Assembly: GCA_963748825.1 (NCBI GenBank)
Contig: CAVVKN010000002.1
Span: forward strand, 64,001-128,000
Direction of reading: 5' to 3'
Length of the DNA: 64,000 nt
From: Methanotrichaceae archaeon
GTDB taxonomy: Archaea; Halobacteriota; Methanosarcinia; Methanotrichales; Methanotrichaceae
Under the pieces are notes generated by a model, which was not told the origin of the DNA, searched no databases, and saw only the letters and a program-made list of their open reading frames with translations. The position numbers were made by a program, and so were the translations under genes. The stretch's first letter is position 1, and each line of letters opens with the position of its first letter. This document shows positions 1-8,490 of the stretch, piece after piece.

Positions 1-362
1 CCCTCGTGAGGTATGTGGCAGAAGTATCTGACTTGGACATCGACTTAGGAATCAAAGGCAAAAGCGGTGTTTTGCAGTCGATCGATACTCGTGAATCATT
101 CTTGACCGATCCATCCCACTCTATCGTCTTTCACTACACGCCGATACACGCTTCTTGGATGAACCAAGTTGAAATATGGTTTAGCATCTTAGTCCGGAAG
201 CTGCTCAGGCGAGCCTCCTTTGCTTCCATCAATGATTTGAAAGCAAAGGTTTTGGCGTTTGTCGAGTACTTCAACCAGACAATGGCAAAGCCGTTCAAAT
301 GGACATATCGAGGGAGAGCACTTACTGCCTAAAATTAGGCTTATTTAAGCCCAGATGTACTA
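1..362 (+). mobile_element. Right part of an IS630-family insertion sequence
   Basis: Transposase C-terminus, then a short non-coding end finishing in GATGTAC|TAG (TA/CTAG target typical of IS630). Sequence after 362 resumes an unrelated reading frame. Confidence 0.8.
6..332 (+). CDS. IS630-family DDE transposase, C-terminal part (truncated by window edge)
   Basis: Motifs [20 protein letters not shown] and AKPFKWTY are characteristic of IS630/DDE_3 transposases. Confidence 0.9.
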
Positions 363-529: not shown

Positions 530-949
530 TTATGGATTCTTGCGGCTGCGCCCCAGCACCATCTGCCGGGTAGCCCTCTCCGCCTCTATATTGCGCCGAC
601 AAACCGGGCAGACCCGGATCCATTCCAGGCCCTCAGAGTCCTTCTGCAAATTGGCAGGAAGAACTGACTCAATCCTTCTCAGCATGGGCTCCGTGGCATA
701 ACGCGATCCACAGATCTTGCAGGCCACCAGATCAAAGGACACATCAGGTTCAGGCACGGTCTCATCGAAAGGCATCAGAGTCAGAGCTTTGGCAGGGCAA
801 AACTCCACGCAAAGATCGCACTCCTCTTTGCACCTCTTCCAGTGAATGCTCCGCATCTCTCCCGTCTCGGTACGGACGATATTTTGACTGGGACAGACAG
901 TGGAACAGGATAGGCAGCCCAGACACAGGCTGGCATCAACTTTGATCAT
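530..949 (-). CDS. 4Fe-4S ferredoxin-type protein (NuoI/HycF-like)
   Basis: CLGCLSCSTVCP and CKEECDLCVEFCP motifs, plus CKICG and CPVC pairs; GGAGGT RBS. Confidence 0.85.
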   Translation of the reverse strand: MIKVDASLCLGCLSCSTVCPSQNIVRTETGEMRSIHWKRCKEECDLCVEFCPAKALTLMPFDETVPEPDVSFDLVACKICGSRYATEPMLRRIESVLPANLQKDSEGLEWIRVCPVCRRNIEAERATRQMVLGRSRKNP

Positions 950-1386
950 CTCTTACCTCCATGGGCAGCAGCCCGAGCAGCGCGCGAGCGTGCCCGGCGA
1001 GACGCAATCTCAAAATCAGTGGATAGAGCATTGGCAGGACAGGTGGTAACGCAGGTGGGCTCCTCCGCGAGCCCTTCACATAGATCGCACTTGTGAGCGA
1101 TCTTGTTCGCCCGGACCACTCCGAAGGGACAGGCCAGCTGGCACAGGCCGCAGCCGGTGCACTTTTCCACATCAAAAGCCGTGCGCTCTCCCTCTTTATG
1201 CAAAGCCCCGCTAAAGCAGGCCATGGTGCAGCTGGCCTCCTCACAGTGATGACAAAATATGGGGACCGAGGCAGAGTCTCCCACAAAATGCACATTGATG
1301 TGTCCGCTGCCTCCGTGCACGCGCTGGCAGGCCACCTCGCAGGAGCGGCAGCCAATGCATCTACTGATGTCAATGTAAACGGGCAT
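946..1386 (-). CDS. 4Fe-4S dicluster protein (HydN/CooF/FdhB-like electron-transfer subunit)
   Basis: Four Cys clusters: CIGCRSCEVAC, CHHCEEASCTMAC, CTGCGLCQLACP, KCDLC...PTCVTTCP. Confidence 0.9.
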   Translation of the reverse strand: MPVYIDISRCIGCRSCEVACQRVHGGSGHINVHFVGDSASVPIFCHHCEEASCTMACFSGALHKEGERTAFDVEKCTGCGLCQLACPFGVVRANKIAHKCDLCEGLAEEPTCVTTCPANALSTDFEIASRRARSRAARAAAHGGKR

Positions 1387-3429
1387 TTAATCCCTCCGGG
1401 AAATCTTGCAGGCCGATACCTTGAACTCGGGTATCCTGGCTTCAGGATCTGTAACCTCTGTAGTGAGGATATTGGTTCCTGGGAAATGGAAGGGCATGAA
1501 CACCACTCCTCTTTTCACTTTATCCGTGAGGCGGGCATAAGCCTCGGTCTCACCCCGCTGCGTAGCAATGGTAACCTCATCGCCATCAGCCACCTTGAGC
1601 CGCGTGGCATCGGCTGGGTTGATCTCCACATAGAGATCCGGCTCGCGCTCCATGAGCGAGGGGCTTCTCCTGGTCATGGACCCGGCATTGTGATGCACAG
1701 CTACACGCCCGGTAGTCAGGATAAAGGGATAATCCCAGCTGGCGTCTTCTGCCGCCGGCCGGTAGGGGACGGGCACAATGAAGGCACGCCCCTCGGCAAA
1801 CTTGAAACCGGAGGAGTGAAGTATGGGCGTTCCCGGATGATCGGGACTGGGGCAGGGCCAGATGAGTCCGCCTTTATCGAGCCTTTCCCGGGTTATACCT
1901 GCGTACTGGGGAACGGTCCGGTTGATCTCCGCTAAAACTGATGCCGCATCAGGATAATCAAAATCAAGCCCCAGGCTGCCTGCAACCCGGCACACGATCT
2001 CCAGGTCGGAGAGTGCCGCTCCCGGCGGCTCAATGGCTTTGCTGCTCCACTGCACGCGCCTTTCCGTGTTGGTGAAGCTTCCTTCCTTCTCCGCCCAGGC
2101 CGCCGCCGGCAAAACGACATCTGCAAGCTGAGCAGTAGCCGTCATGAAAATATCCTGCACTACTAAAAAATCCAGATTTTCCAGCCCATCCCGGACATGC
2201 CGGCTACAGGGATCAGAGTTGGCCGGATCTTCGCCCACAATGTACATGGCCTTGATATCACCTGTGGCAGCAGCATCTATCATCTCCGTGGCTGTGAGGC
2301 CTGGGCCTGAGGGCAGGCTTTTTGCCCCCCAGGCAGAAGAGAAGAACTTGATGGTCTCAGGATCGTCTGCCTTTTTATAGCCGGGATAAAACTCTGCCAG
2401 TGCCCCCATATCGCAGGCACCCTGAACATTGTTCTGGCCGCGCAGAGGCATGACCCCTGTACCTGGCTTTCCCATATGCCCACAGATGAGGGCCAGATTG
2501 GAAACGGCCTGCACATTGTCTGTGCCCGTGCTGTGCTGAGTGATCCCCATAGAATAGAGTATAGAGGAAGCAGGAGATATGGCATAAGAACGCGCCGCCC
2601 TTACAATGTCGCCTGCGGCAACCCCAGTGATCTCGGCCACCTTTTCCGGAGAATAATCTTTGACCGACTCTGCCAGAGCCTCAAAGCCGCGGGTTCTTTG
2701 GGTGATGTAATCTCTATCTATCAGGCCCTCTTTGATTATCACATGAGCCATGCCGTTTAAGAGAGCCACATCCGTTCCAGGCTTAAGCTGCAAGAAGACA
2801 TCCGCCATCCAGGAGGTATGCGTTACACGAGGATCAGCTACGATTACCACGGCACCTGCATCCTTAGCCCTGTGGATCCAGCGGGAGATAACAGGATGAT
2901 TTTCCGCCAGATTTGATCCTATGATGAATATGCACTTGGAGTTAGCGATATCTGGGATGGGATTGGTCATTCCGGCTGCGCCGAGAGTACGATTCAATCC
3001 CACCACCGAGGGGGCATGACAGAGCCGGGCGCAGTTGTCCACATTGGGCGAGCCTAAAAGACGGGCCAGCTTCTCGATCAGATAGTCCTCCTCATTGCTG
3101 CATTTGGAAGAGGCCAGAAGGGCAATGCTGCCAGGACCGTACTTCTTGATGGCATCACCGATCCCCCGGGCCACCAGATCGATAGCTTCCTCCCAGGATA
3201 TCCTGGCCCAGCCTTCGCCTTTCCTCTTCAGAGGAGATGTAAGTCGCTCCTGGTGGTAGAGGATCTCCAAAGCGGCATTTCCCTTAGAGCATAAAGCACC
3301 CTCGCTGACAGGATGATCCGGCATATATTCTATCCCGGTGGCGCGATCCTTTTCTACTGCAATGAAAAATCCGCAGCCTGCACCGCAATATGGACAGACC
3401 GTTGGAACAAGCACTTTTGTCATCTTCAT
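1387..3429 (-). CDS. fdhF: Formate dehydrogenase alpha subunit, FdhF type (Cys form, Mo/W-bisPGD)
   Basis: CPYCGAGC...LCSKG Fe-S motif, NCARLCHAPS active-site Cys-His, PLRGQNNVQG Arg, C-terminal molybdopterin-binding domain (PEFKVSAC). Confidence 0.88.
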   Translation of the reverse strand: MKMTKVLVPTVCPYCGAGCGFFIAVEKDRATGIEYMPDHPVSEGALCSKGNAALEILYHQERLTSPLKRKGEGWARISWEEAIDLVARGIGDAIKKYGPGSIALLASSKCSNEEDYLIEKLARLLGSPNVDNCARLCHAPSVVGLNRTLGAAGMTNPIPDIANSKCIFIIGSNLAENHPVISRWIHRAKDAGAVVIVADPRVTHTSWMADVFLQLKPGTDVALLNGMAHVIIKEGLIDRDYITQRTRGFEALAESVKDYSPEKVAEITGVAAGDIVRAARSYAISPASSILYSMGITQHSTGTDNVQAVSNLALICGHMGKPGTGVMPLRGQNNVQGACDMGALAEFYPGYKKADDPETIKFFSSAWGAKSLPSGPGLTATEMIDAAATGDIKAMYIVGEDPANSDPCSRHVRDGLENLDFLVVQDIFMTATAQLADVVLPAAAWAEKEGSFTNTERRVQWSSKAIEPPGAALSDLEIVCRVAGSLGLDFDYPDAASVLAEINRTVPQYAGITRERLDKGGLIWPCPSPDHPGTPILHSSGFKFAEGRAFIVPVPYRPAAEDASWDYPFILTTGRVAVHHNAGSMTRRSPSLMEREPDLYVEINPADATRLKVADGDEVTIATQRGETEAYARLTDKVKRGVVFMPFHFPGTNILTTEVTDPEARIPEFKVSACKISRRD

Positions 3430-3433
3430 CCCT

Positions 3434-4243
3434 TTAGTAAGCATAAAGATTGCTGTAGGGCCTCTTCGACTTGGGCGTGAGCCTGACGAACTGAGAATTC
3501 AAGATCTCATCTTTGCTCTTGTTGACCTTCGGAAAGCGCTCCACGAACCTGGAGACAAATTTATCCAGGACTGCCCTGTCGGACTCGTCTATGGGTGAAA
3601 TGTCCACCTGCCCGCCGACCTGAGACTGCTCTACATTGCCGCGCAGATAGATCACCCCTCCATGCATGCCTGAGCCTATGAAGTTGGCTTTATGGGTCAG
3701 GCCATGCAGGTCCAGGACTATCACAATTCCGCCCGCCATGTACTCGCCCAAAAAGTCCTGCGAGATGCCGCCTACGACCAGAACGGGCCTCTTGTCCTCG
3801 TACTCCTTCATGTGCAGCGCCGTTCTGTAGCCACAATTGTCTCGCACATAGATCTCGCCTCCGCGCATGGAAAAACCCAGTACATCTCCGGCCCGTCCCT
3901 TTACGACTATCTCTCCGCCGTCCATGGTGTTTCCCACGCCATCCTGAGCATTGCCGTGCACAGTTATCTTATGGCCGTAAAGAAAGGCGGCCAGGTCGTT
4001 GCCGGGAGTCCCGAAGATCTCGATCTCCATTTTAAGATGCTCGGGAGTGTAAAGGCGGGTGCCTATGTACCTCTGGCCGCAAACATTTGTGATGTTGACC
4101 TTTTTCACGCCGGAGAGCATCAAGTCCCTGAGCCGGCCATTTAGCTCTTTTGTCTCCAGATCTGTAGCATCGATCAGAGCGCACTTCCTCTCATCAGCCT
4201 GATCTGAATCGAGATTCGATTGGGATGCCGCTGCTCTCGCCAT
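3434..4243 (-). CDS. gltB3: Glutamate synthase large-subunit domain 3 (GXGXG) protein
   Basis: GQRYIG, GTPGNDLAAF, GNAQDGVGNTM, DFLGEYMAGG beta-helix motifs. Start could extend to the GTG at 4264. Confidence 0.85.
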   Translation of the reverse strand: MARAAASQSNLDSDQADERKCALIDATDLETKELNGRLRDLMLSGVKKVNITNVCGQRYIGTRLYTPEHLKMEIEIFGTPGNDLAAFLYGHKITVHGNAQDGVGNTMDGGEIVVKGRAGDVLGFSMRGGEIYVRDNCGYRTALHMKEYEDKRPVLVVGGISQDFLGEYMAGGIVIVLDLHGLTHKANFIGSGMHGGVIYLRGNVEQSQVGGQVDISPIDESDRAVLDKFVSRFVERFPKVNKSKDEILNSQFVRLTPKSKRPYSNLYAY

Positions 4244-4250
4244 TCTTCTC

Positions 4251-5765
4251 TCACTCTCCCGCACCCTTGATTCCTAATACATCAAGCTCCCACTCATACA
4301 GCCCCACGCCCCGCAGGTGGTCTCGGTTGCCGCGCAGGCTCTCCAGGGCGTTGATGCCCATGCCGCCCAGCATCTCGCTGATCTCATGCGACCAGGCAGT
4401 AATGAGGTTGGACAGCCTCTGCGAGGCGATATCCACATTCAGCCTGCCGGACAGGCGCGGGTCCTGAGTGCATATTCCCCAGTTGCACTTTCCGGTATAG
4501 CATTTCTGGCAGAGAGTGCAGCCCATGGCAATTAGAGCCGCTGATCCGATATAAACGGCATCAGCGCCCAGGGCTATGGCCTTGATTACGTCGCTGCTAC
4601 AGCGAATTCCGCCCGCGGCCACGATGGAGCATCTGTTCCTGATACCCTCTCTACGCAGGCGTCGGTCCAACGATGATATGGCAAGCTCTATTGGTATACC
4701 CACATTGTCCCGGATGGCTTTGGGGGCCGCTCCCGTTCCGCCCCGAAGACCATCGATGGCGATGATGTCCGCACCGGCTCGCACAATTCCCGAGGCTATG
4801 GCGGCAAAGTTATGCACGGCTGCGATCTTCACGGATATGGGCTTTTCGTAGTTGGTAGCCTCCTTCAGAGCGAAGATGAGCATGGATAGATCTTCAATGG
4901 AGTAGATATCATGATGCGGCGCTGGTGAGATGGCATCCGTGCCCATGGGGATCATGCGCGTCTCTGCCACCGCAGCCGAGACCTTCTCGCCGGGCAAGTG
5001 GCCGCCGATGCCGGGCTTGGCCCCCTGGCCCACCTTGATCTCCACGGCCTGGGCACAGTTCAGGTACTCAGCATCTATGCCGAAGCGGCCCGATGCCACC
5101 TGCACAATGGCACATCTTCCAAACTCTTCCCTCATCTCCCTGGGAAGGCCACCTTCACCGGTATTGAAATAGGTTCCCGACTTGCAGGCAGCCGTCGCCA
5201 GGGAACGGAAGGCGTTGTAGCTTATGGCTCCGTAGGACATGGCCGAGAAAAGGATAGGAGTTTCCACCATCAGATTGGGAGAGAGCTCGGTCTTAATCTC
5301 CACATCTCCGTCCTTTGCTGAAATGTCCATCAAGTCGGGCTTGGCGCCCAGGAAGGTGCGCAGCTCCATCGGTTCGCGCAATGGATCGATGGAGGGATTG
5401 GTGACCTGAGAGGCATTGAGCACGATATGGTCCCAGTAGATACGGAATGGCTTGTCGCTCCCGCATCCGGTAAGGATCACTCCTCCAGTCTCCGCTTGCT
5501 TCTTGAGGTCTTCCAGCTTCTCGCGAGACCAAGAGGCATTGGGCCGGTAGAACGAGGGCGTGGGCCGAACCACTATGGCATTTTTGGGACAGAAGATGAC
5601 GCATCTCTGGCAGCCGACGCACTTGTAGTCATCGGATGTCAGCCGGTCAGACACCGGATCGTAAGTATGGGTGCCAAAGGCGCACTGCCTCTCGCAGCCC
5701 CTACACTGGCCGCATTTTTCTTCGTCCCTGGTGATCTGAAACTCTGGAAAGACGAATGATTTCAT
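4251..5765 (-). CDS. gltB2: Archaeal glutamate synthase FMN-binding subunit with N-terminal 2x[4Fe-4S] domain
   Basis: AMSYGA, NTGEGG, QVASGRFG, EIKVGQGAKPGIGGHLPGEKV, ISPAPHHDIYSIEDL, GCTLCQKCYTGKCNWGICTQ. Confidence 0.93.
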   Translation of the reverse strand: MKSFVFPEFQITRDEEKCGQCRGCERQCAFGTHTYDPVSDRLTSDDYKCVGCQRCVIFCPKNAIVVRPTPSFYRPNASWSREKLEDLKKQAETGGVILTGCGSDKPFRIYWDHIVLNASQVTNPSIDPLREPMELRTFLGAKPDLMDISAKDGDVEIKTELSPNLMVETPILFSAMSYGAISYNAFRSLATAACKSGTYFNTGEGGLPREMREEFGRCAIVQVASGRFGIDAEYLNCAQAVEIKVGQGAKPGIGGHLPGEKVSAAVAETRMIPMGTDAISPAPHHDIYSIEDLSMLIFALKEATNYEKPISVKIAAVHNFAAIASGIVRAGADIIAIDGLRGGTGAAPKAIRDNVGIPIELAISSLDRRLRREGIRNRCSIVAAGGIRCSSDVIKAIALGADAVYIGSAALIAMGCTLCQKCYTGKCNWGICTQDPRLSGRLNVDIASQRLSNLITAWSHEISEMLGGMGINALESLRGNRDHLRGVGLYEWELDVLGIKGAGE

Positions 5766-6907
5766 TGCAAAACCTTCCTCATACTATTTAGTTCGCCTAT
5801 GACCGGTTCTCCTCCGTTGGGCGTCCAGACGCGGTCAAGCTGTGGCGAAATAAGTCTAATCGACGCTTCCTCTGAGGAGAGGTAGAACATCTCTCCTCTC
5901 GTGGCTGCGGTAATGGGTCGAAGCCTGATTCTGTCCGTGAGACCGATTATTCTCCCCGTCTGACCGATGATTATGGCAAAAGGCCCGTTCATGAGCAGAG
6001 GCGCATAGACCATCCTCAAAGTTGTGAGCAGCTTTTTCTCCTTCTCATTCATCCGGTCGATCGCATTCCAGATGGGTGGTGCGAGAATTTTGGCCACAAT
6101 CTCAATGGGAAGCTTTTGCCTTCTCATGAGAAGGTCCGCAGCATAAGCTATTACCTCAGTGTCCGTTTGCAGGGTGCAGGCATAGCCGTACATCTCCAGA
6201 TACCAGCGATTGGTGCCGTAAGAGGAGATCTCGCCGTTGTGAACGATGGTTGTATCCAGGAGGCTGAAGGGATGAGCCCCGCCCCACCAGGCCTGGGTGT
6301 TTGTGGGAAAGCGACCGTGCACCGTCCAGGCGTAGGCTGAGTAGAGCTTGTCGAGCATGAAGTACTCCCCGATATCCTCAGGATAGCCAACGCCCTTGAA
6401 GCAGCCCATGTTCTTGCCGGAAGAGAACACATGAGCATTCTCGATCCTGGTGTTCACCAGCATGATCTTCTCCACGATGTAATCCTCATCGGAGAGCGAA
6501 GCGTCTTCGCCCTGCTTTTTGGGAAGGACAAAGTAGCGCCAGACTAAGGGAGGATCGCTTACAGTTGCCTCATCACCATGAGGGATCTCTTCATCGTGGA
6601 CAACATCGAAGTTCTGGCAGAGAAAGGCATCCAGCTCCTTTTTTGCGTATACTTTATCCTGGGGGCTCTTGCCGGTGAACATAAGATGGAAGGCATAGTA
6701 ATCCTGGTACTGCGGGTATATGCCATAGGCTGCAAACCCCCCACCCAGACCATTGCCGCGTACGTGCATGTTGGCTATGGCCTTCATGACGCCCTCTCCG
6801 GTAAAGCGCTCCCCGTCTCGGTTCATGGCACCGAAGATGGAGCAGGCACAGATCTCTTTATTGTACAGCTCCCTTCTAATCCTTGGCATAGTAATCTTAG
6901 ACTCCAT
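5762..6907 (-). CDS. gltB1: Glutamate synthase domain 1 / class II glutamine amidotransferase
   Basis: ACSIFG nucleophile region, RGNGLGGGFAAYG, HGRFPTNT, GGAHPF, VHNGEISSYG, TDTEV. Confidence 0.9.
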   Translation of the reverse strand: MESKITMPRIRRELYNKEICACSIFGAMNRDGERFTGEGVMKAIANMHVRGNGLGGGFAAYGIYPQYQDYYAFHLMFTGKSPQDKVYAKKELDAFLCQNFDVVHDEEIPHGDEATVSDPPLVWRYFVLPKKQGEDASLSDEDYIVEKIMLVNTRIENAHVFSSGKNMGCFKGVGYPEDIGEYFMLDKLYSAYAWTVHGRFPTNTQAWWGGAHPFSLLDTTIVHNGEISSYGTNRWYLEMYGYACTLQTDTEVIAYAADLLMRRQKLPIEIVAKILAPPIWNAIDRMNEKEKKLLTTLRMVYAPLLMNGPFAIIIGQTGRIIGLTDRIRLRPITAATRGEMFYLSSEEASIRLISPQLDRVWTPNGGEPVIGELNSMRKVLQ

Positions 6908-7125
6908 CCATCGACCTTTCTGCTGTTTTAACGCTAACCTTACCCATGTAAGTCTTGCTCGATTAGATGATGTGTGGGCAAGAAGTGATCGCAATAAATG
7001 TCTTATATCTATTTAAGAAACATTCATAATACTTATGATAGAAGCTAGTCGATGCAGGCACATTTCCTCTCACGATTTTTCCTCACTTTTTTTCAAGGTG
7101 ATTTTCTTGATGTAAGGCTAACAGC

Positions 7126-7156
7126 AAATAAAAAGGTGAGCCCGGATAAGGGGCTC
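7126..7156 (-). terminator. Putative glnA terminator
   Basis: GAGCCC-N7-GGGCTC hairpin (7138-7156) followed on the minus strand by CCTTTTTATTT. Confidence 0.5.
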
Positions 7157-8490
7157 TAGAGCAGAGGCAAGTACCTCTCCAACTCCCACTGGGTGACATT
7201 GGTGCGGTAGGCATCCCACTCCGCTTTCTTGTTGGTGATGAAAGCTCTGAAGACGTGCTCGCCGAGTGCCTCGCGAATGAGCTTGCTTCCCTCTGTAAGC
7301 TGAATGGCATCGTTCAAGCTTCCCGGCAGAGAGGTGATTCCTGCTTTCTTTCTCTCATCATCGCTCATGTGGTAGATGTCCTGCTCCTGGGGAGCGGGCA
7401 GATCGTACTTGTTAGCGATTCCGGCTAGGCCCGCGGCTAGCATGACGGAGAAGGCCAGGTAGGGGTTGGTGGCTGGATCGGGGCTTCTGAACTCGACTCG
7501 GGTGGCAGCCTCCTTTCCGGGCTTGTACATGGGTACTCTGACCAGGGCAGATCTGTTTCTTCTCGCCCAGCAGATGTAGACGGGGGCCTCGTAGCCGGGG
7601 ACCAGGCGCTTGTAGGAGTTGACCCACTGGTTGGTGACGGCTGTGATCTCGGGCGCGTGCTTGAGAAGGCCGGCAATGTAGTACTTGCCCTCATCGGAGA
7701 GATGATATTTGTCTCCGGCATCGAACATCACATTTCTCTTTCCCTGGAAGAGGGACTGGTGTACGTGCATGCCGCTGCCGTTCTGGCCGAAGATGGGCTT
7801 GGGCATGAAGCTGGCGTGGTAGCCGTACCGGCGGGCGATCTCCTTGACGGTGATCTTGTACGTCATCACCGTATCGGCCATATTCAGAGCGTCCTTGTAG
7901 CGTAGATCGATCTCATGCTGAGAAGGAGCAACCTCATGGTGGCTGTACTCCACATCTATGCCCATAGAATCCAGGGCAAGGATTGTGTCCCGGCGCAGAT
8001 CGGAGGCGTTGTCGGCAGTGGTCAGATCGAAGTATCCGCCGTTGTCCAGGACCTCCGTGCAGTGCTCGTTTTTGAAGTAAAAGAACTCCAGCTCCGGGCC
8101 TACCAGGAAGCTGTAGCCTTTATCCTTGATGCGCTCCAGATTTCTCTTCAGGACGTACCTGGGATCGCCCTCATACGGGCTGCCATCGGGATTCTGGATG
8201 TCGCAGAACATCCTGGCCACGCCGTTCTCCTGTTGCCTCCAGGGGATAAGCTGGAAGGTGGTTGGGTCGGGCTTGGCGACCATGTCTGATTCGTGGATTC
8301 GGGCAAAGCCCTCAATAGAGGAGCCGTCAAAGCCCATGCCCTCGGAGAATGCCCCCTCCAGCTCGCTGGGATTAATAGCAAAGCTCTTAGGGACACCCAG
8401 GATATCAGTGAACCAAATTCGGACAAATCTCACATTATATTTGTCAATTGCCTCAAAGACTTCATCTTTTGACTTAATTTGCATGGCCAT
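7156..8490 (-). CDS. glnA: Glutamine synthetase type I
   Basis: FDGSSIEGF, HHEVAPSQHEI, FMPKP..NGSGMHVHQSL, NSYKRLVPGYEAP, RVEFRSPDP. Confidence 0.97.
   Translation of the reverse strand: MAMQIKSKDEVFEAIDKYNVRFVRIWFTDILGVPKSFAINPSELEGAFSEGMGFDGSSIEGFARIHESDMVAKPDPTTFQLIPWRQQENGVARMFCDIQNPDGSPYEGDPRYVLKRNLERIKDKGYSFLVGPELEFFYFKNEHCTEVLDNGGYFDLTTADNASDLRRDTILALDSMGIDVEYSHHEVAPSQHEIDLRYKDALNMADTVMTYKITVKEIARRYGYHASFMPKPIFGQNGSGMHVHQSLFQGKRNVMFDAGDKYHLSDEGKYYIAGLLKHAPEITAVTNQWVNSYKRLVPGYEAPVYICWARRNRSALVRVPMYKPGKEAATRVEFRSPDPATNPYLAFSVMLAAGLAGIANKYDLPAPQEQDIYHMSDDERKKAGITSLPGSLNDAIQLTEGSKLIREALGEHVFRAFITNKKAEWDAYRTNVTQWELERYLPLL

Follow-up and report, generated by a model that had tools for sequence, protein, structure and literature searches.

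The window analysed here, a stretch of 64,000 nucleotides from a Methanotrichaceae archaeon, contains a gltB1-gltB2-gltB3-fdhF-fer1-fer2 cluster that is best explained as one transcription unit joining two machines. The first is an archaeal three-subunit glutamate synthase (GOGAT), made up of the glutaminase GltB1, GltB2 with its ferredoxin domain and FMN/[3Fe-4S] synthase, and GltB3. The second is the soluble electron-input arm of formate hydrogenlyase, with FdhF, Fer1 and Fer2 present and hydrogenase and membrane subunits missing. We tentatively propose, with a probability of about 0.4, that electrons from formate reach the ferredoxin domain of GOGAT via Fer1 and Fer2, which would serve other partners too. 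To our knowledge, it has never been settled what donates electrons to the split archaeal glutamate synthase; gene order has led to predictions of F420-linked forms only.

Operon structure

The cluster and its surroundings comprise the following features.

7156..8490, minus strand: glnA, type I glutamine synthetase (Gln-synt_C and Gln-synt_N, Pfam); context, probably its own transcription unit
7124..7156, minus strand: hairpin GAGCCC..GGGCTC and T-run directly 3' of the glnA stop, from sequence reading
5762..6907, minus strand: gltB1, class-II glutamine amidotransferase subunit of archaeal-type GOGAT (GATase_2, E 4.5e-14, Pfam)
4251..5765, minus strand: gltB2, N-terminal 2x[4Fe-4S] ferredoxin domain (Fer4 families, residues 11-66) and FMN/[3Fe-4S] synthase domain (Glu_synthase, 476.8 bits; Pfam)
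3434..4243, minus strand: gltB3, GXGXG-motif GOGAT subunit (PF01493, 108 bits)
1387..3444, minus strand: fdhF, Cys-type Mo/W-bis-PGD formate dehydrogenase catalytic subunit (TIGR01591; Molybdop_Fe4S4, Molybdopterin and Molydop_binding, Pfam)
946..1386, minus strand: fer1, HycB/HydN-like protein with 16 Cys, up to four [4Fe-4S] (Fer4 families; PDB matches)
530..949, minus strand: fer2, HycF-like (NuoI family) 2x[4Fe-4S] protein with an extra CxxC...CxxC (Fer4 families; profile, fold and synteny)
3..332, plus strand: 3' part of an IS630-type DDE_3 transposase gene just past the operon end (PF13358 matches here and in the adjoining sequence of the contig, G000:C2)

An earlier sequence-only reading had described six co-oriented, tightly packed genes, and the layout bears this out: all six lie on the minus strand, with junctions from an 11-nt overlap to a 7-nt gap when the ATG start of gltB3 is taken. 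The gltB1/gltB2 and fer1/fer2 pairs share ATGA overlaps (4 nt in the former), gltB3 and fdhF overlap by 11 nt, and the ATG of fer1 immediately follows the fdhF stop. At gltB2/gltB3 the ATG start leaves the 7-nt gap, while the alternative GTG start at 4264 gives a 14-nt overlap. The gltB1 frame is open upstream of its ATG as far as a TTG at 6994; alignment with orthologues begins at residue 1 of the ATG-start form, and the candidate amidotransferase cysteines lie ~20 residues past that start. None of the internal spacers is long enough for a promoter.

The same reading placed the six genes directly downstream of glnA, whose product scores 549.8 bits against TIGR00653 (NCBIfam cut-off 429). The gene order stands, but direct continuity does not: the hairpin and T-run, followed by a 248-nt AT-rich spacer, separate glnA from gltB1, so that the six genes look like a separate transcription unit. 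RNA-library (metatranscriptome) contigs from two studies span fer2/fer1/fdhF, fdhF/gltB3 and gltB3/gltB2, although these contigs are assembled, may hold DNA and do not prove a single transcript. Positions 7057-7192 are left uncovered by the RNA-library contigs of X1 and X2, which is a weak hint only. No match to the NrpR-type operator motif, GGAA-N6-TTCC, was found within the window. An IS element and a duplicated fer2 fragment adjoin the operon, which marks the region as one that rearranges.

Glutamate synthase subunits

Separate GATase_2, Glu_synthase (FMN) and GXGXG genes occur in the order of a three-gene archaeal GOGAT, and this order is repeated in relatives and in a Methanocaldococcus locus (L084). 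The single-copy gltB2 is the only GOGAT synthase gene of the genome. Eight N-terminal cysteines of GltB2 are invariant in all 21 aligned sequences, including relatives that lack the FDH module, and the requirement of this 2x[4Fe-4S] domain for an Fe-S donor is supported.

The absence of a GltD-like or FrhB-like gene from the cluster, as first noted from the sequence, was confirmed, and no other reductase subunit is encoded nearby. The sole Fer4_20 (GltD-type) gene of the genome is found ~125 kb away (G000:C2:191773-193179), where it adjoins another FdhA paralogue, and its two FrhB_FdhB_C genes lie on other contigs (C10 and C12). No GltD is encoded with gltB, as it would be in an NAD(P)H-GOGAT (GltBD), and neither is the FrhB/FsrN/FdhB-type F420-binding subunit that would characterize the F420-dependent GOGAT (FGltS) predicted in PMC3448663.

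Formate dehydrogenase

FdhF as a whole protein scores 833.9 bits against TIGR01591 (NCBIfam cut-off 666.25). The catalytic residues reported earlier in NCARLCH and PLRGQNN are present as Cys142-His143 and Arg335; in alignment they coincide with the Sec/Cys-His and Arg residues of formate dehydrogenases of known structure (9t1s_L, 7qv7_S). The N-terminal four-Cys [4Fe-4S] motif lies in the Molybdop_Fe4S4 domain, with its cysteines conserved. The Cys-His pair, the Arg and the 4Fe-4S cysteines are kept in 37/37 aligned cassette-type FdhF, of which one (L048, from genome G108) follows a gltB3 remnant and the other 36 follow an intact gltB or lie at a contig end; the Cys-His pair and active-site Arg are also retained in 23/23 FdhF paralogues. 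All of these cassette-type sequences have a complete formate dehydrogenase active site. Its closest outside relatives are FdhF genes within bacterial hydrogenlyase clusters.

In the nitrogen context of glnA-gltB, FdhF might instead be taken for an assimilatory nitrate reductase of the Nas type, an enzyme that one might expect in a nitrogen-assimilation operon, and NasC is indeed its second-best NCBIfam match (546 bits). However, this score is far under the NasC cut-off of 1100, whereas TIGR01591 is over its own. Furthermore, FdhF aligns with solved formate dehydrogenases at its Cys-His pair and its RGQNNVQG arginine motif, neither of which is known from nitrate reductases, and the nearest FdhF relatives are all in formate hydrogenlyase or cooS clusters. 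We consider a nitrate reductase extremely improbable.

HycB- and HycF-like Fe-S proteins

The two "ferredoxins" are HycB-like and HycF-like proteins, of the types that wire electrons in bacterial formate hydrogenlyase. Among PDB entries Fer1 matches HycB4 best (7qv7_B, E 1.9e-24), with HycB (7z0s_B) at E 1.6e-17, and in NCBIfam it comes closest to the AegA/YgfT N-terminal domain and HydN. Fer2 is assigned by profile, fold and synteny: its profile matches 7z0s_F over residues 6-122 (E 9.4e-16), and the top fold matches of its AlphaFold model (pLDDT 88.4) are 7z0t_F and 7z0s_F (TM 0.67/0.68), the next best being at most 0.38. The nearest bacterial relatives have the same fdhF-fer1-fer2 series, with Proton_antipo_M, NADHdh and Complex1_30kDa/49kDa/NiFeSe genes downstream of it.

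The FdhF, HycB-type and HycF-type components of a formate hydrogenlyase are thus found together, and the cluster contains no group-4 [NiFe] hydrogenase large, small or membrane subunits. The genome's only HycE/NuoCD-like gene (contig C6) has no CxxC nickel-binding motif, so its product is not a hydrogenase. These data bear on the idea that the FDH arm docks on the complex-I-like Fpo as a formate:methanophenazine oxidoreductase, as the same arm does on the complex-I-like hydrogenase in formate hydrogenlyase, the gltB link being incidental. The family of Fer2 (HycF/NuoI) and the NuoCD/HycE-like subunit devoid of the nickel motif would suit such an arrangement, but in the alignment Fer2 is without the N-terminal ~41 residues that its bacterial counterpart has, a segment that contacts the membrane arm in complex I, and no Fpo genes were seen near the trio in any locus read. 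Docking on Fpo is drawn purely by analogy and is judged very unlikely.

Conservation and loss of the linkage

The gltB-fdhF-fer1-fer2 order was found in 20 of 21 close public loci with upstream sequence and in 10/11, 21/29 and 18/40 loci of further surveys, while gltB2-to-fer2 spacing fits it in 44 of 105 family genomes; these five sets overlap and are not additive. Because the order recurs in dozens of species-level genomes, it is far beyond chance. The expectation that the linkage would be conserved in relatives holds in a large clade, but outside it the linkage is absent or broken. Spacing fits gltB-fer1-fer2 without fdhF in 11 genomes, nine verified gltB-fer1-fer2 loci have lost fdhF, and the gene is decaying in another locus (L167). 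gltB stands alone in 17 of 40 loci, six of which have a downstream flank too short for a verdict. Solitary GOGAT genes occur in genera whose fdhF-fer1-fer2 sits behind cooS-cooF, which indicates that this archaeal GOGAT type works without an adjacent FDH.

A five-gene cluster, cooS-cooF-fdhF-fer1-fer2, occurs apart from gltB in other family genera and in Methanosarcinaceae; here the same Fe-S proteins lie between two catalytic enzymes, CooS and FdhF. The trio was located apart from gltB in eight family genomes of genera g13, g14, g15, g20 and g23, and also in g22. In four of these loci (L199, L200, L201, L206) a fer1-like (CooF-type) gene precedes an intact fdhF, with a cooS-sized ORF in all three that have ORFs listed (L199, L201, L206). 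In L202, L203 and L205 fdhF is reduced to a remnant, and L204 begins too near fdhF for upstream genes to be judged. The window's own genome has cooS-cooF without the trio, beside apparently the same neighbouring P-loop gene (N-terminal sequence compared by eye). Since other genera and Methanosarcinaceae have the trio apart from gltB, it has probably moved. Its probable source is an older cooS-cooF-fdhF-fer1-fer2 cluster, from which it would have been excised and inserted after gltB3 in an ancestor of the main Methanothrix/Methanocrinis clade.

At eight loci fer1-fer2 are intact although gltB and an intact fdhF are both missing, and G108 retains fdhF-fer1-fer2 behind the gltB3 remnant after loss of gltB1/B2. 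A Glu_synthase domain is absent from all five gltB-less genomes searched (four with fer1-fer2 loci, and G108), which are 97-99% complete. The dN/dS of fer1/fer2 is 0.16-0.19 (about 0.17) in loci without gltB and intact fdhF versus 0.11 in intact operons. fer1-fer2 remain under purifying selection even without GOGAT.

Proposed electron transfer from formate to GOGAT

In the reading that we favour, formate would be oxidised at the Mo/W centre of FdhF, and electrons would pass from its [4Fe-4S] cluster through those of Fer1 and then Fer2 to the two N-terminal [4Fe-4S] clusters of GltB2. From there they would continue to the [3Fe-4S] cluster and FMN, where 2-iminoglutarate derived from glutamine and 2-oxoglutarate would be reduced. 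Fer1 and Fer2 would act as a shared wire rather than as GOGAT subunits, active also where GOGAT or a neighbouring fdhF is absent; their partner in such genomes is perhaps a 60%-identical FdhF paralogue encoded elsewhere. The original proposal of a formate-coupled glutamate synthase operon keeps its operon, its conservation, its FDH active site and the backing of the RNA contigs. What falls is the view of the FDH and Fe-S proteins as an electron-input module dedicated to GOGAT, given the trio behind cooS-cooF, solitary GOGAT, the fdhF losses and fer1-fer2 without GOGAT.

There is a substantial chance that FdhF-Fer1-Fer2 is an autonomous soluble formate dehydrogenase or CO2 reductase that works with a low-potential pool or several partners, its adjacency to gltB3 reflecting co-expression at most and possibly nothing. 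GOGAT would then draw on free ferredoxin, as it presumably does where gltB is solitary. The 17/40 solitary loci (6 with a short downstream flank), the trio apart from gltB in other genera and Methanosarcinaceae, its persistence after gltB1/B2 loss in G108, purifying selection on fer1-fer2 without any GOGAT, and the rearranging region with its IS element and duplicated fer2 fragment would all agree with autonomy. On the other hand, the overlapping gltB3/fdhF junction has been retained since the move in dozens of species-level genomes of several genera, fer1-fer2 stay joined to gltB3 after fdhF loss (the nine verified loci), and the operon has no internal spacer able to hold a promoter.

The stronger form of formate coupling, in which FdhF, Fer1 and Fer2 would physically dock on GOGAT to make a putative formate:2-oxoglutarate/glutamine oxidoreductase ("formate-GOGAT"), appears rather unlikely. 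If it were true, it would constitute a fourth glutamate synthase class, in addition to those that use NAD(P)H, ferredoxin or, by prediction, F420, with the input arm of a formate hydrogenlyase/CO dehydrogenase cluster re-plugged onto an anabolic enzyme, and an acetate-specialist methanogen could spend syntrophic formate on nitrogen assimilation.

Relatives of Methanothrix are among the main methane producers. They have several formate dehydrogenase genes, for which we know of no role. According to PMC4652020, these organisms are held not to grow on formate. A formate-fed GOGAT, if real, would give one puzzling FDH an anabolic job and a central nitrogen enzyme a new reductant class. Formate may help to pay for nitrogen assimilation, with a unit that is not tied to GOGAT in relatives. 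Even without direct coupling, the FdhF/HycB-like/HycF-like module is portable, standing behind CO dehydrogenase, behind GOGAT, or as its two Fe-S proteins only, and is a clear case of redox modules re-plugged in evolution. Strains with gltB-fer1-fer2 only or fer1-fer2 only represent natural "knock-outs". No literature on an FDH module behind an archaeal GOGAT was found in print.

Comparison with known systems

The E. coli formate hydrogenlyase FdhF-HycB-HycF (PDB 7Z0S/7Z0T) has the same three protein types as the trio, the gene order in the nearest bacterial relatives is identical to fdhF-fer1-fer2, and E. coli FDH-H (1aa6) matches FdhF at E 2e-149. In contrast to the E. coli system, which has the HycE/HycG hydrogenase and HycC/HycD membrane subunits, the cluster has neither; its FdhF carries Cys rather than Sec, Fer2 is without the N-terminal segment, and the neighbour is GOGAT. 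The hydrogen-dependent CO2 reductase of Thermoanaerobacter kivui (PDB 7QV7) shares a Cys-type FdhF (E 2e-195) and HycB-type wiring, but has an [FeFe] hydrogenase partner in a filament, no HycF-type subunit and no GOGAT.

E. coli AegA and YgfT, annotated in NCBIfam as formate-dependent uric acid utilization proteins, have as N-terminal Fe-S domains the best NCBIfam matches of Fer1, a resemblance that covers the Fe-S domain only and is far under the family cut-offs. In these formate-dependent proteins the Fe-S domain is fused to a GltD-like flavoprotein. They would be a precedent for formate electrons entering the GOGAT family, although they are fusions with a GltD-type domain and not with a GltB-type synthase.

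Bacterial NADPH-GOGAT (GltB-GltD) and ferredoxin-GOGAT have the same glutaminase, FMN/[3Fe-4S] synthase and GXGXG parts; here these are three separate genes, with no GltD in the cluster and an extra N-terminal 2x[4Fe-4S] domain in GltB2. The F420H2-dependent glutamate synthases of methanogens, FGltS(I) and FGltS(II), and the ANME FrhB10-gltB clusters, all of them genomic-context predictions (PMC3448663; bioRxiv 10.1101/2021.09.25.461819), likewise combine by gene order an archaeal split GOGAT with a swappable electron-input subunit. That subunit is of the F420-binding FrhB/FdhB type, whereas the input here would be a molybdo/tungsto-pterin FDH with HycB/HycF-type Fe-S proteins.

Gene layout and operon structure

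Seven genes at the left end of the window lie on the minus strand, and their assignments were borne out by Pfam and NCBIfam:

7156-8490, minus strand: glnA (Pfam and NCBIfam)
5762-6907, minus strand: gltB1, class-II amidotransferase (Pfam and NCBIfam)
4251-5765, minus strand: gltB2, ferredoxin-type 2x[4Fe-4S] domain N-terminal to the FMN synthase domain
3434-4243, minus strand: gltB3, GXGXG domain
1387-3444, minus strand: fdhF, TIGR01591 at 833.9 bits against a cut-off of 666
946-1386, minus strand: fer1, multi-cluster Fe-S protein
530-949, minus strand: fer2, multi-cluster Fe-S protein

The tight, co-oriented six-gene order described in the sequence-only reading is confirmed by the ORF coordinates, the junctions and the domain assignments. 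The gltB1/gltB2 junction is an ATGA overlap, gltB2 and gltB3 are separated by 7 nt, gltB3 and fdhF overlap by 11 nt, the fdhF stop is followed at once by the ATG of fer1, and fer1 and fer2 again overlap at ATGA. Between glnA and gltB1 come a hairpin with a T-run and an AT-rich spacer of 248 nt, so gltB1-gltB2-gltB3-fdhF-fer1-fer2 looks like an operon separate from glnA. The only glutamate synthase (GOGAT) synthase gene in the genome is gltB2. As had been noted from the sequence, the cluster contains no GltD- or FrhB-type gene; the genome's one Fer4_20 gene and two FrhB_FdhB_C genes are located elsewhere. The sequence GGAA-N6-TTCC, which we take to be the NrpR-type operator motif, has 0 matches in the window versus 1.6 expected by chance, a result that does not decide the matter of nitrogen control.

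The operon is bordered directly at its 3' end by an IS630-type DDE_3 transposase gene (window 3-332, plus strand, and 63123-64000 on contig C2 of the window's own genome, G000), and a truncated second fer2 (residues 43-139, 88-89% identical) is found 7 kb further on (G000:C2:57097-57390). Together they suggest a recent rearrangement on this side. At 8-11 kb beyond the left edge of the window (G000:C2:52905-56223) are genes for a glutamate dehydrogenase and for a protein of 535 aa that has a partial Glu_synthase domain, so that, with the nearby glnA-gltB, three ammonium assimilation routes are clustered.

Representation in RNA libraries

Two groundwater metatranscriptome runs, each from a separate study (X1 and X2), contain contigs 96-97% alike to the window; this degree of likeness indicates that they derive from a relative. 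They span fer2/fer1/fdhF, fdhF/gltB3 and gltB3/gltB2 (X1 records 1, 5 and 6; X2 records 10, 12 and 14). Being assembled from RNA libraries, such contigs attest presence and continuity, but neither one undivided transcript nor an expression level. The contigs part from the window at 552, just within the 3' end of fer2. The uncovered stretch 7057-7192 and the zero-depth bins (runs X4 and X8) carry no weight as evidence. At 2405-2445 the depth goes up three- to seven-fold in 4/4 runs, and loose ends are numerous; the stretch corresponds to the conserved RGQNNVQGACDMG motif, and the reads there thus come from formate dehydrogenases of many other organisms.

Protein identities

FdhF aligns end to end with the solved formate dehydrogenases 9t1s_L (E 4e-198), 7qv7_S and 1aa6. 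The catalytic Cys-His and Arg noted from the sequence are retained, with Cys142-His143 falling on the Sec/Cys-His and PLRGQNNVQG on the arginine motif of the solved enzymes. Assignment of FdhF as a nitrate reductase was rejected because of its family scores and the motifs of its active site. Fer1 resembles HycB: among solved structures it comes closest to HycB4 and HycB3 of the hydrogen-dependent CO2 reductase and to HycB of E. coli formate hydrogenlyase. Fer2 resembles HycF: a profile built from 20 orthologues matched E. coli HycF over nearly its whole length (E 9.4e-16), and the AlphaFold model (pLDDT 88.4) had strong fold matches to HycF chains only (TM 0.67 and 0.68, the next at most 0.38). 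When GltB2 (21-row alignment) was paired with Fer2 (20-row alignment), complex prediction returned no answer (score 0.00 against a mark of 0.32), which weighs neither for nor against an interaction.

Conservation of the linkage between gltB and fdhF-fer1-fer2

Three overlapping locus sets were compared, and their counts are not additive. FdhF retrieved 80 public loci, 24 of them at 67% identity or more. In this closer set gltB genes are directly upstream of fdhF in 20 of the 21 loci with upstream sequence, the exception (L048, from genome G108) having glnA and a gltB3 remnant there, and fer1-fer2 are downstream in 23 of 23 loci with downstream sequence. Among 29 family gltB2 loci, fdhF is directly 3' of gltB3 in 21 and fer1-fer2 follow gltB3 without fdhF in five, while three have no flank. 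Forty further loci comprise 18 with the full order, one with an internally deleted fdhF, four with gltB-fer1-fer2 and 17 with no member of the fdhF-fer1-fer2 trio 3' of gltB3, of which six have a flank too short to judge. The synteny survey proposed earlier therefore came out mixed: fdhF is directly 3' of gltB3 in many loci of the family, but elsewhere the trio is absent or fdhF is missing.

Classes of 105 family genomes by gltB2-fer2 spacing on one contig; calls of no gltB2 rest on 14 scored candidates per genome, with five such genomes rechecked with PF01645
Full order: 44
No-fdhF order: 11
Intermediate spacing: 2
gltB2 and fer2 both present, not within 8 kb on the same contig and strand: 18
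fer2 only: 15
gltB2 only: 8
Neither gltB2 nor fer2: 7

In L018 (genome G017) and L136 (G103) gltB3 aligns in two shifted pieces, as do fer1 and fer2 in L018; both operons are otherwise intact, and the shifts reflect frameshifts or faulty assembly. Methanocaldococcus sp. 16A (L084, 5399-13961) carries on one strand genes for a carbonic anhydrase, a Sec-type FdhA (48% identical), NAD synthase and a DUF2254 membrane protein followed by gltB1-B2-B3, a looser neighbourhood of formate dehydrogenase and split GOGAT that is possibly independent of that in the window.

FdhF relatives and paralogues

The nearest FdhF proteins outside the family (54-56% identity) belong to Armatimonadota and Chloroflexota. 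Fer1- and fer2-like genes come next, with antiporter-like, NuoH-like and HycE-like genes 3' of them, and these bacterial loci are formate hydrogenlyase clusters. In FastTree and a quick IQ-TREE search, the cassette FdhF clade is sister to a clade of 57-62% identical paralogues, and both are jointly sister to the bacterial FdhF, with local support of 99-100 for each grouping.

Five FdhA-like genes are present in the window's genome. One encodes a 62% identical FdhF paralogue; its surroundings (G000:C22:136291-139598) include genes of the FmdE-like and TOBE (molybdate-binding) types but none for an Fe-S partner, and six public loci from another genus have such a paralogue directly 3' of fer2. 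A search of 25 genus genomes turned up a paralogue of about 60% identity in 20 (G000 and one partial match included). In the stretch G000:C2:191773-197088, a further FdhA paralogue of 923 aa with an N-terminal extension has as its neighbors a PyrK/NfnA-like gene and the one GltD-type (Fer4_20) gene of the genome; it resembles an enzyme such as an NAD(P)H-linked formate dehydrogenase or a relative of it.

The trio beside cooS-cooF

In genera g14 and g15 the intact fdhF-fer1-fer2 is found on a different contig from gltB, 3' of a fer1-like (CooF-type) gene (L199, L200, L201 and L206). A cooS-sized ORF is upstream in the three of these whose ORFs were listed, and in L199, the one searched with Pfam, it scores 613 bits as Prismane/CODH. 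The g20 locus L204 begins too near fdhF to show an upstream gene. By ORF order and likeness only, cooS-cooF-fdhF-fer1-fer2 also occurs in one g22 genome and two Methanosarcinaceae genomes; loci of this kind (L238, L239 and L240 together with L199-L201 and L206) cover Methanosarcinaceae and several Methanotrichaceae genera. Such a five-gene cluster could couple the oxidation of CO to the formation of formate from CO2; no description of it was found in the literature searched. The window's genome has cooS-cooF on contig C25 without the trio, adjoining a P-loop gene whose N-terminal sequence resembles, by eye, that of the one 3' of fer2 in g15. In the simplest history, fdhF-fer1-fer2 would have relocated from 3' of cooF to 3' of gltB3, in one move or two, both compatible with the FdhF tree, whose base is a four-way split.

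fer1-fer2 in the absence of GOGAT

In eight loci fer1-fer2 are intact, gltB is missing and no intact fdhF is present. A C-terminal remnant of fdhF is left in two, and in one the pair comes after a glnA with a frameshift. Among the loci whose ORFs were listed (all but L190 and L192), at least four (L189, L193, L194 and L195) have the pair behind a PyrK-like gene, called by Pfam on L189 only. G108 keeps fdhF-fer1-fer2 behind the gltB3 remnant; having lost gltB1/B2, it has a glutamate-dehydrogenase-like ORF directly 3' of fer2 (N-terminal likeness). A PF01645 search of five of these genomes, all of the same genus and 97-99% complete (G015, G084, G093, G101 and G108), found a Glu_synthase domain in 0/5, so GOGAT was lost repeatedly in the genus. 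Dedicated GOGAT subunits, as gltB-fer1-fer2 loci would suggest, were dropped as an explanation of fer1-fer2, both genes being intact in genomes without this domain.

Median pairwise dN/dS is 0.19 for fer2 and 0.16 for fer1 in the fer1-fer2-only loci, compared with 0.12 and 0.11 in intact operons. Persistence without gltB at 0.16-0.19 implies that Fer1 and Fer2 have a job without GOGAT or an adjacent fdhF, for which the FdhF paralogue of about 60% identity, with no adjoining Fe-S gene, is a candidate partner.

Electron input to GOGAT and comparison with known systems

Formate dehydrogenase and the Fe-S proteins had been proposed as the electron input of GOGAT. The proposal is supported in part: the tight and widely conserved gene order favors it, but Fer1/Fer2 persist without GOGAT, and the loci show that with FdhF they make up a portable unit that serves other purposes as well. 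A putative electron flow from formate to GOGAT is the best single reading, with a probability of roughly 0.4, because the gene order was kept long after relocation, no other reductase gene is present and GltB2 has an Fe-S entry domain.

Nothing on a GOGAT linked to formate dehydrogenase or HycB/HycF was found in the literature searched, and a term search of the main text of Zhu et al. 2012 (PMC3349665) returned no link between formate dehydrogenase and GOGAT; gene tables of Methanothrix transcriptome studies (PMC9853277, for example) may carry expression data. F420-linked GOGATs are given as predictions in PMC3448663 and bioRxiv 10.1101/2021.09.25.461819. Compared with its bacterial counterpart, Fer2 lacks the first ~41 residues but keeps the eight cluster cysteines, and an extra CxxC...CxxC is common to both.
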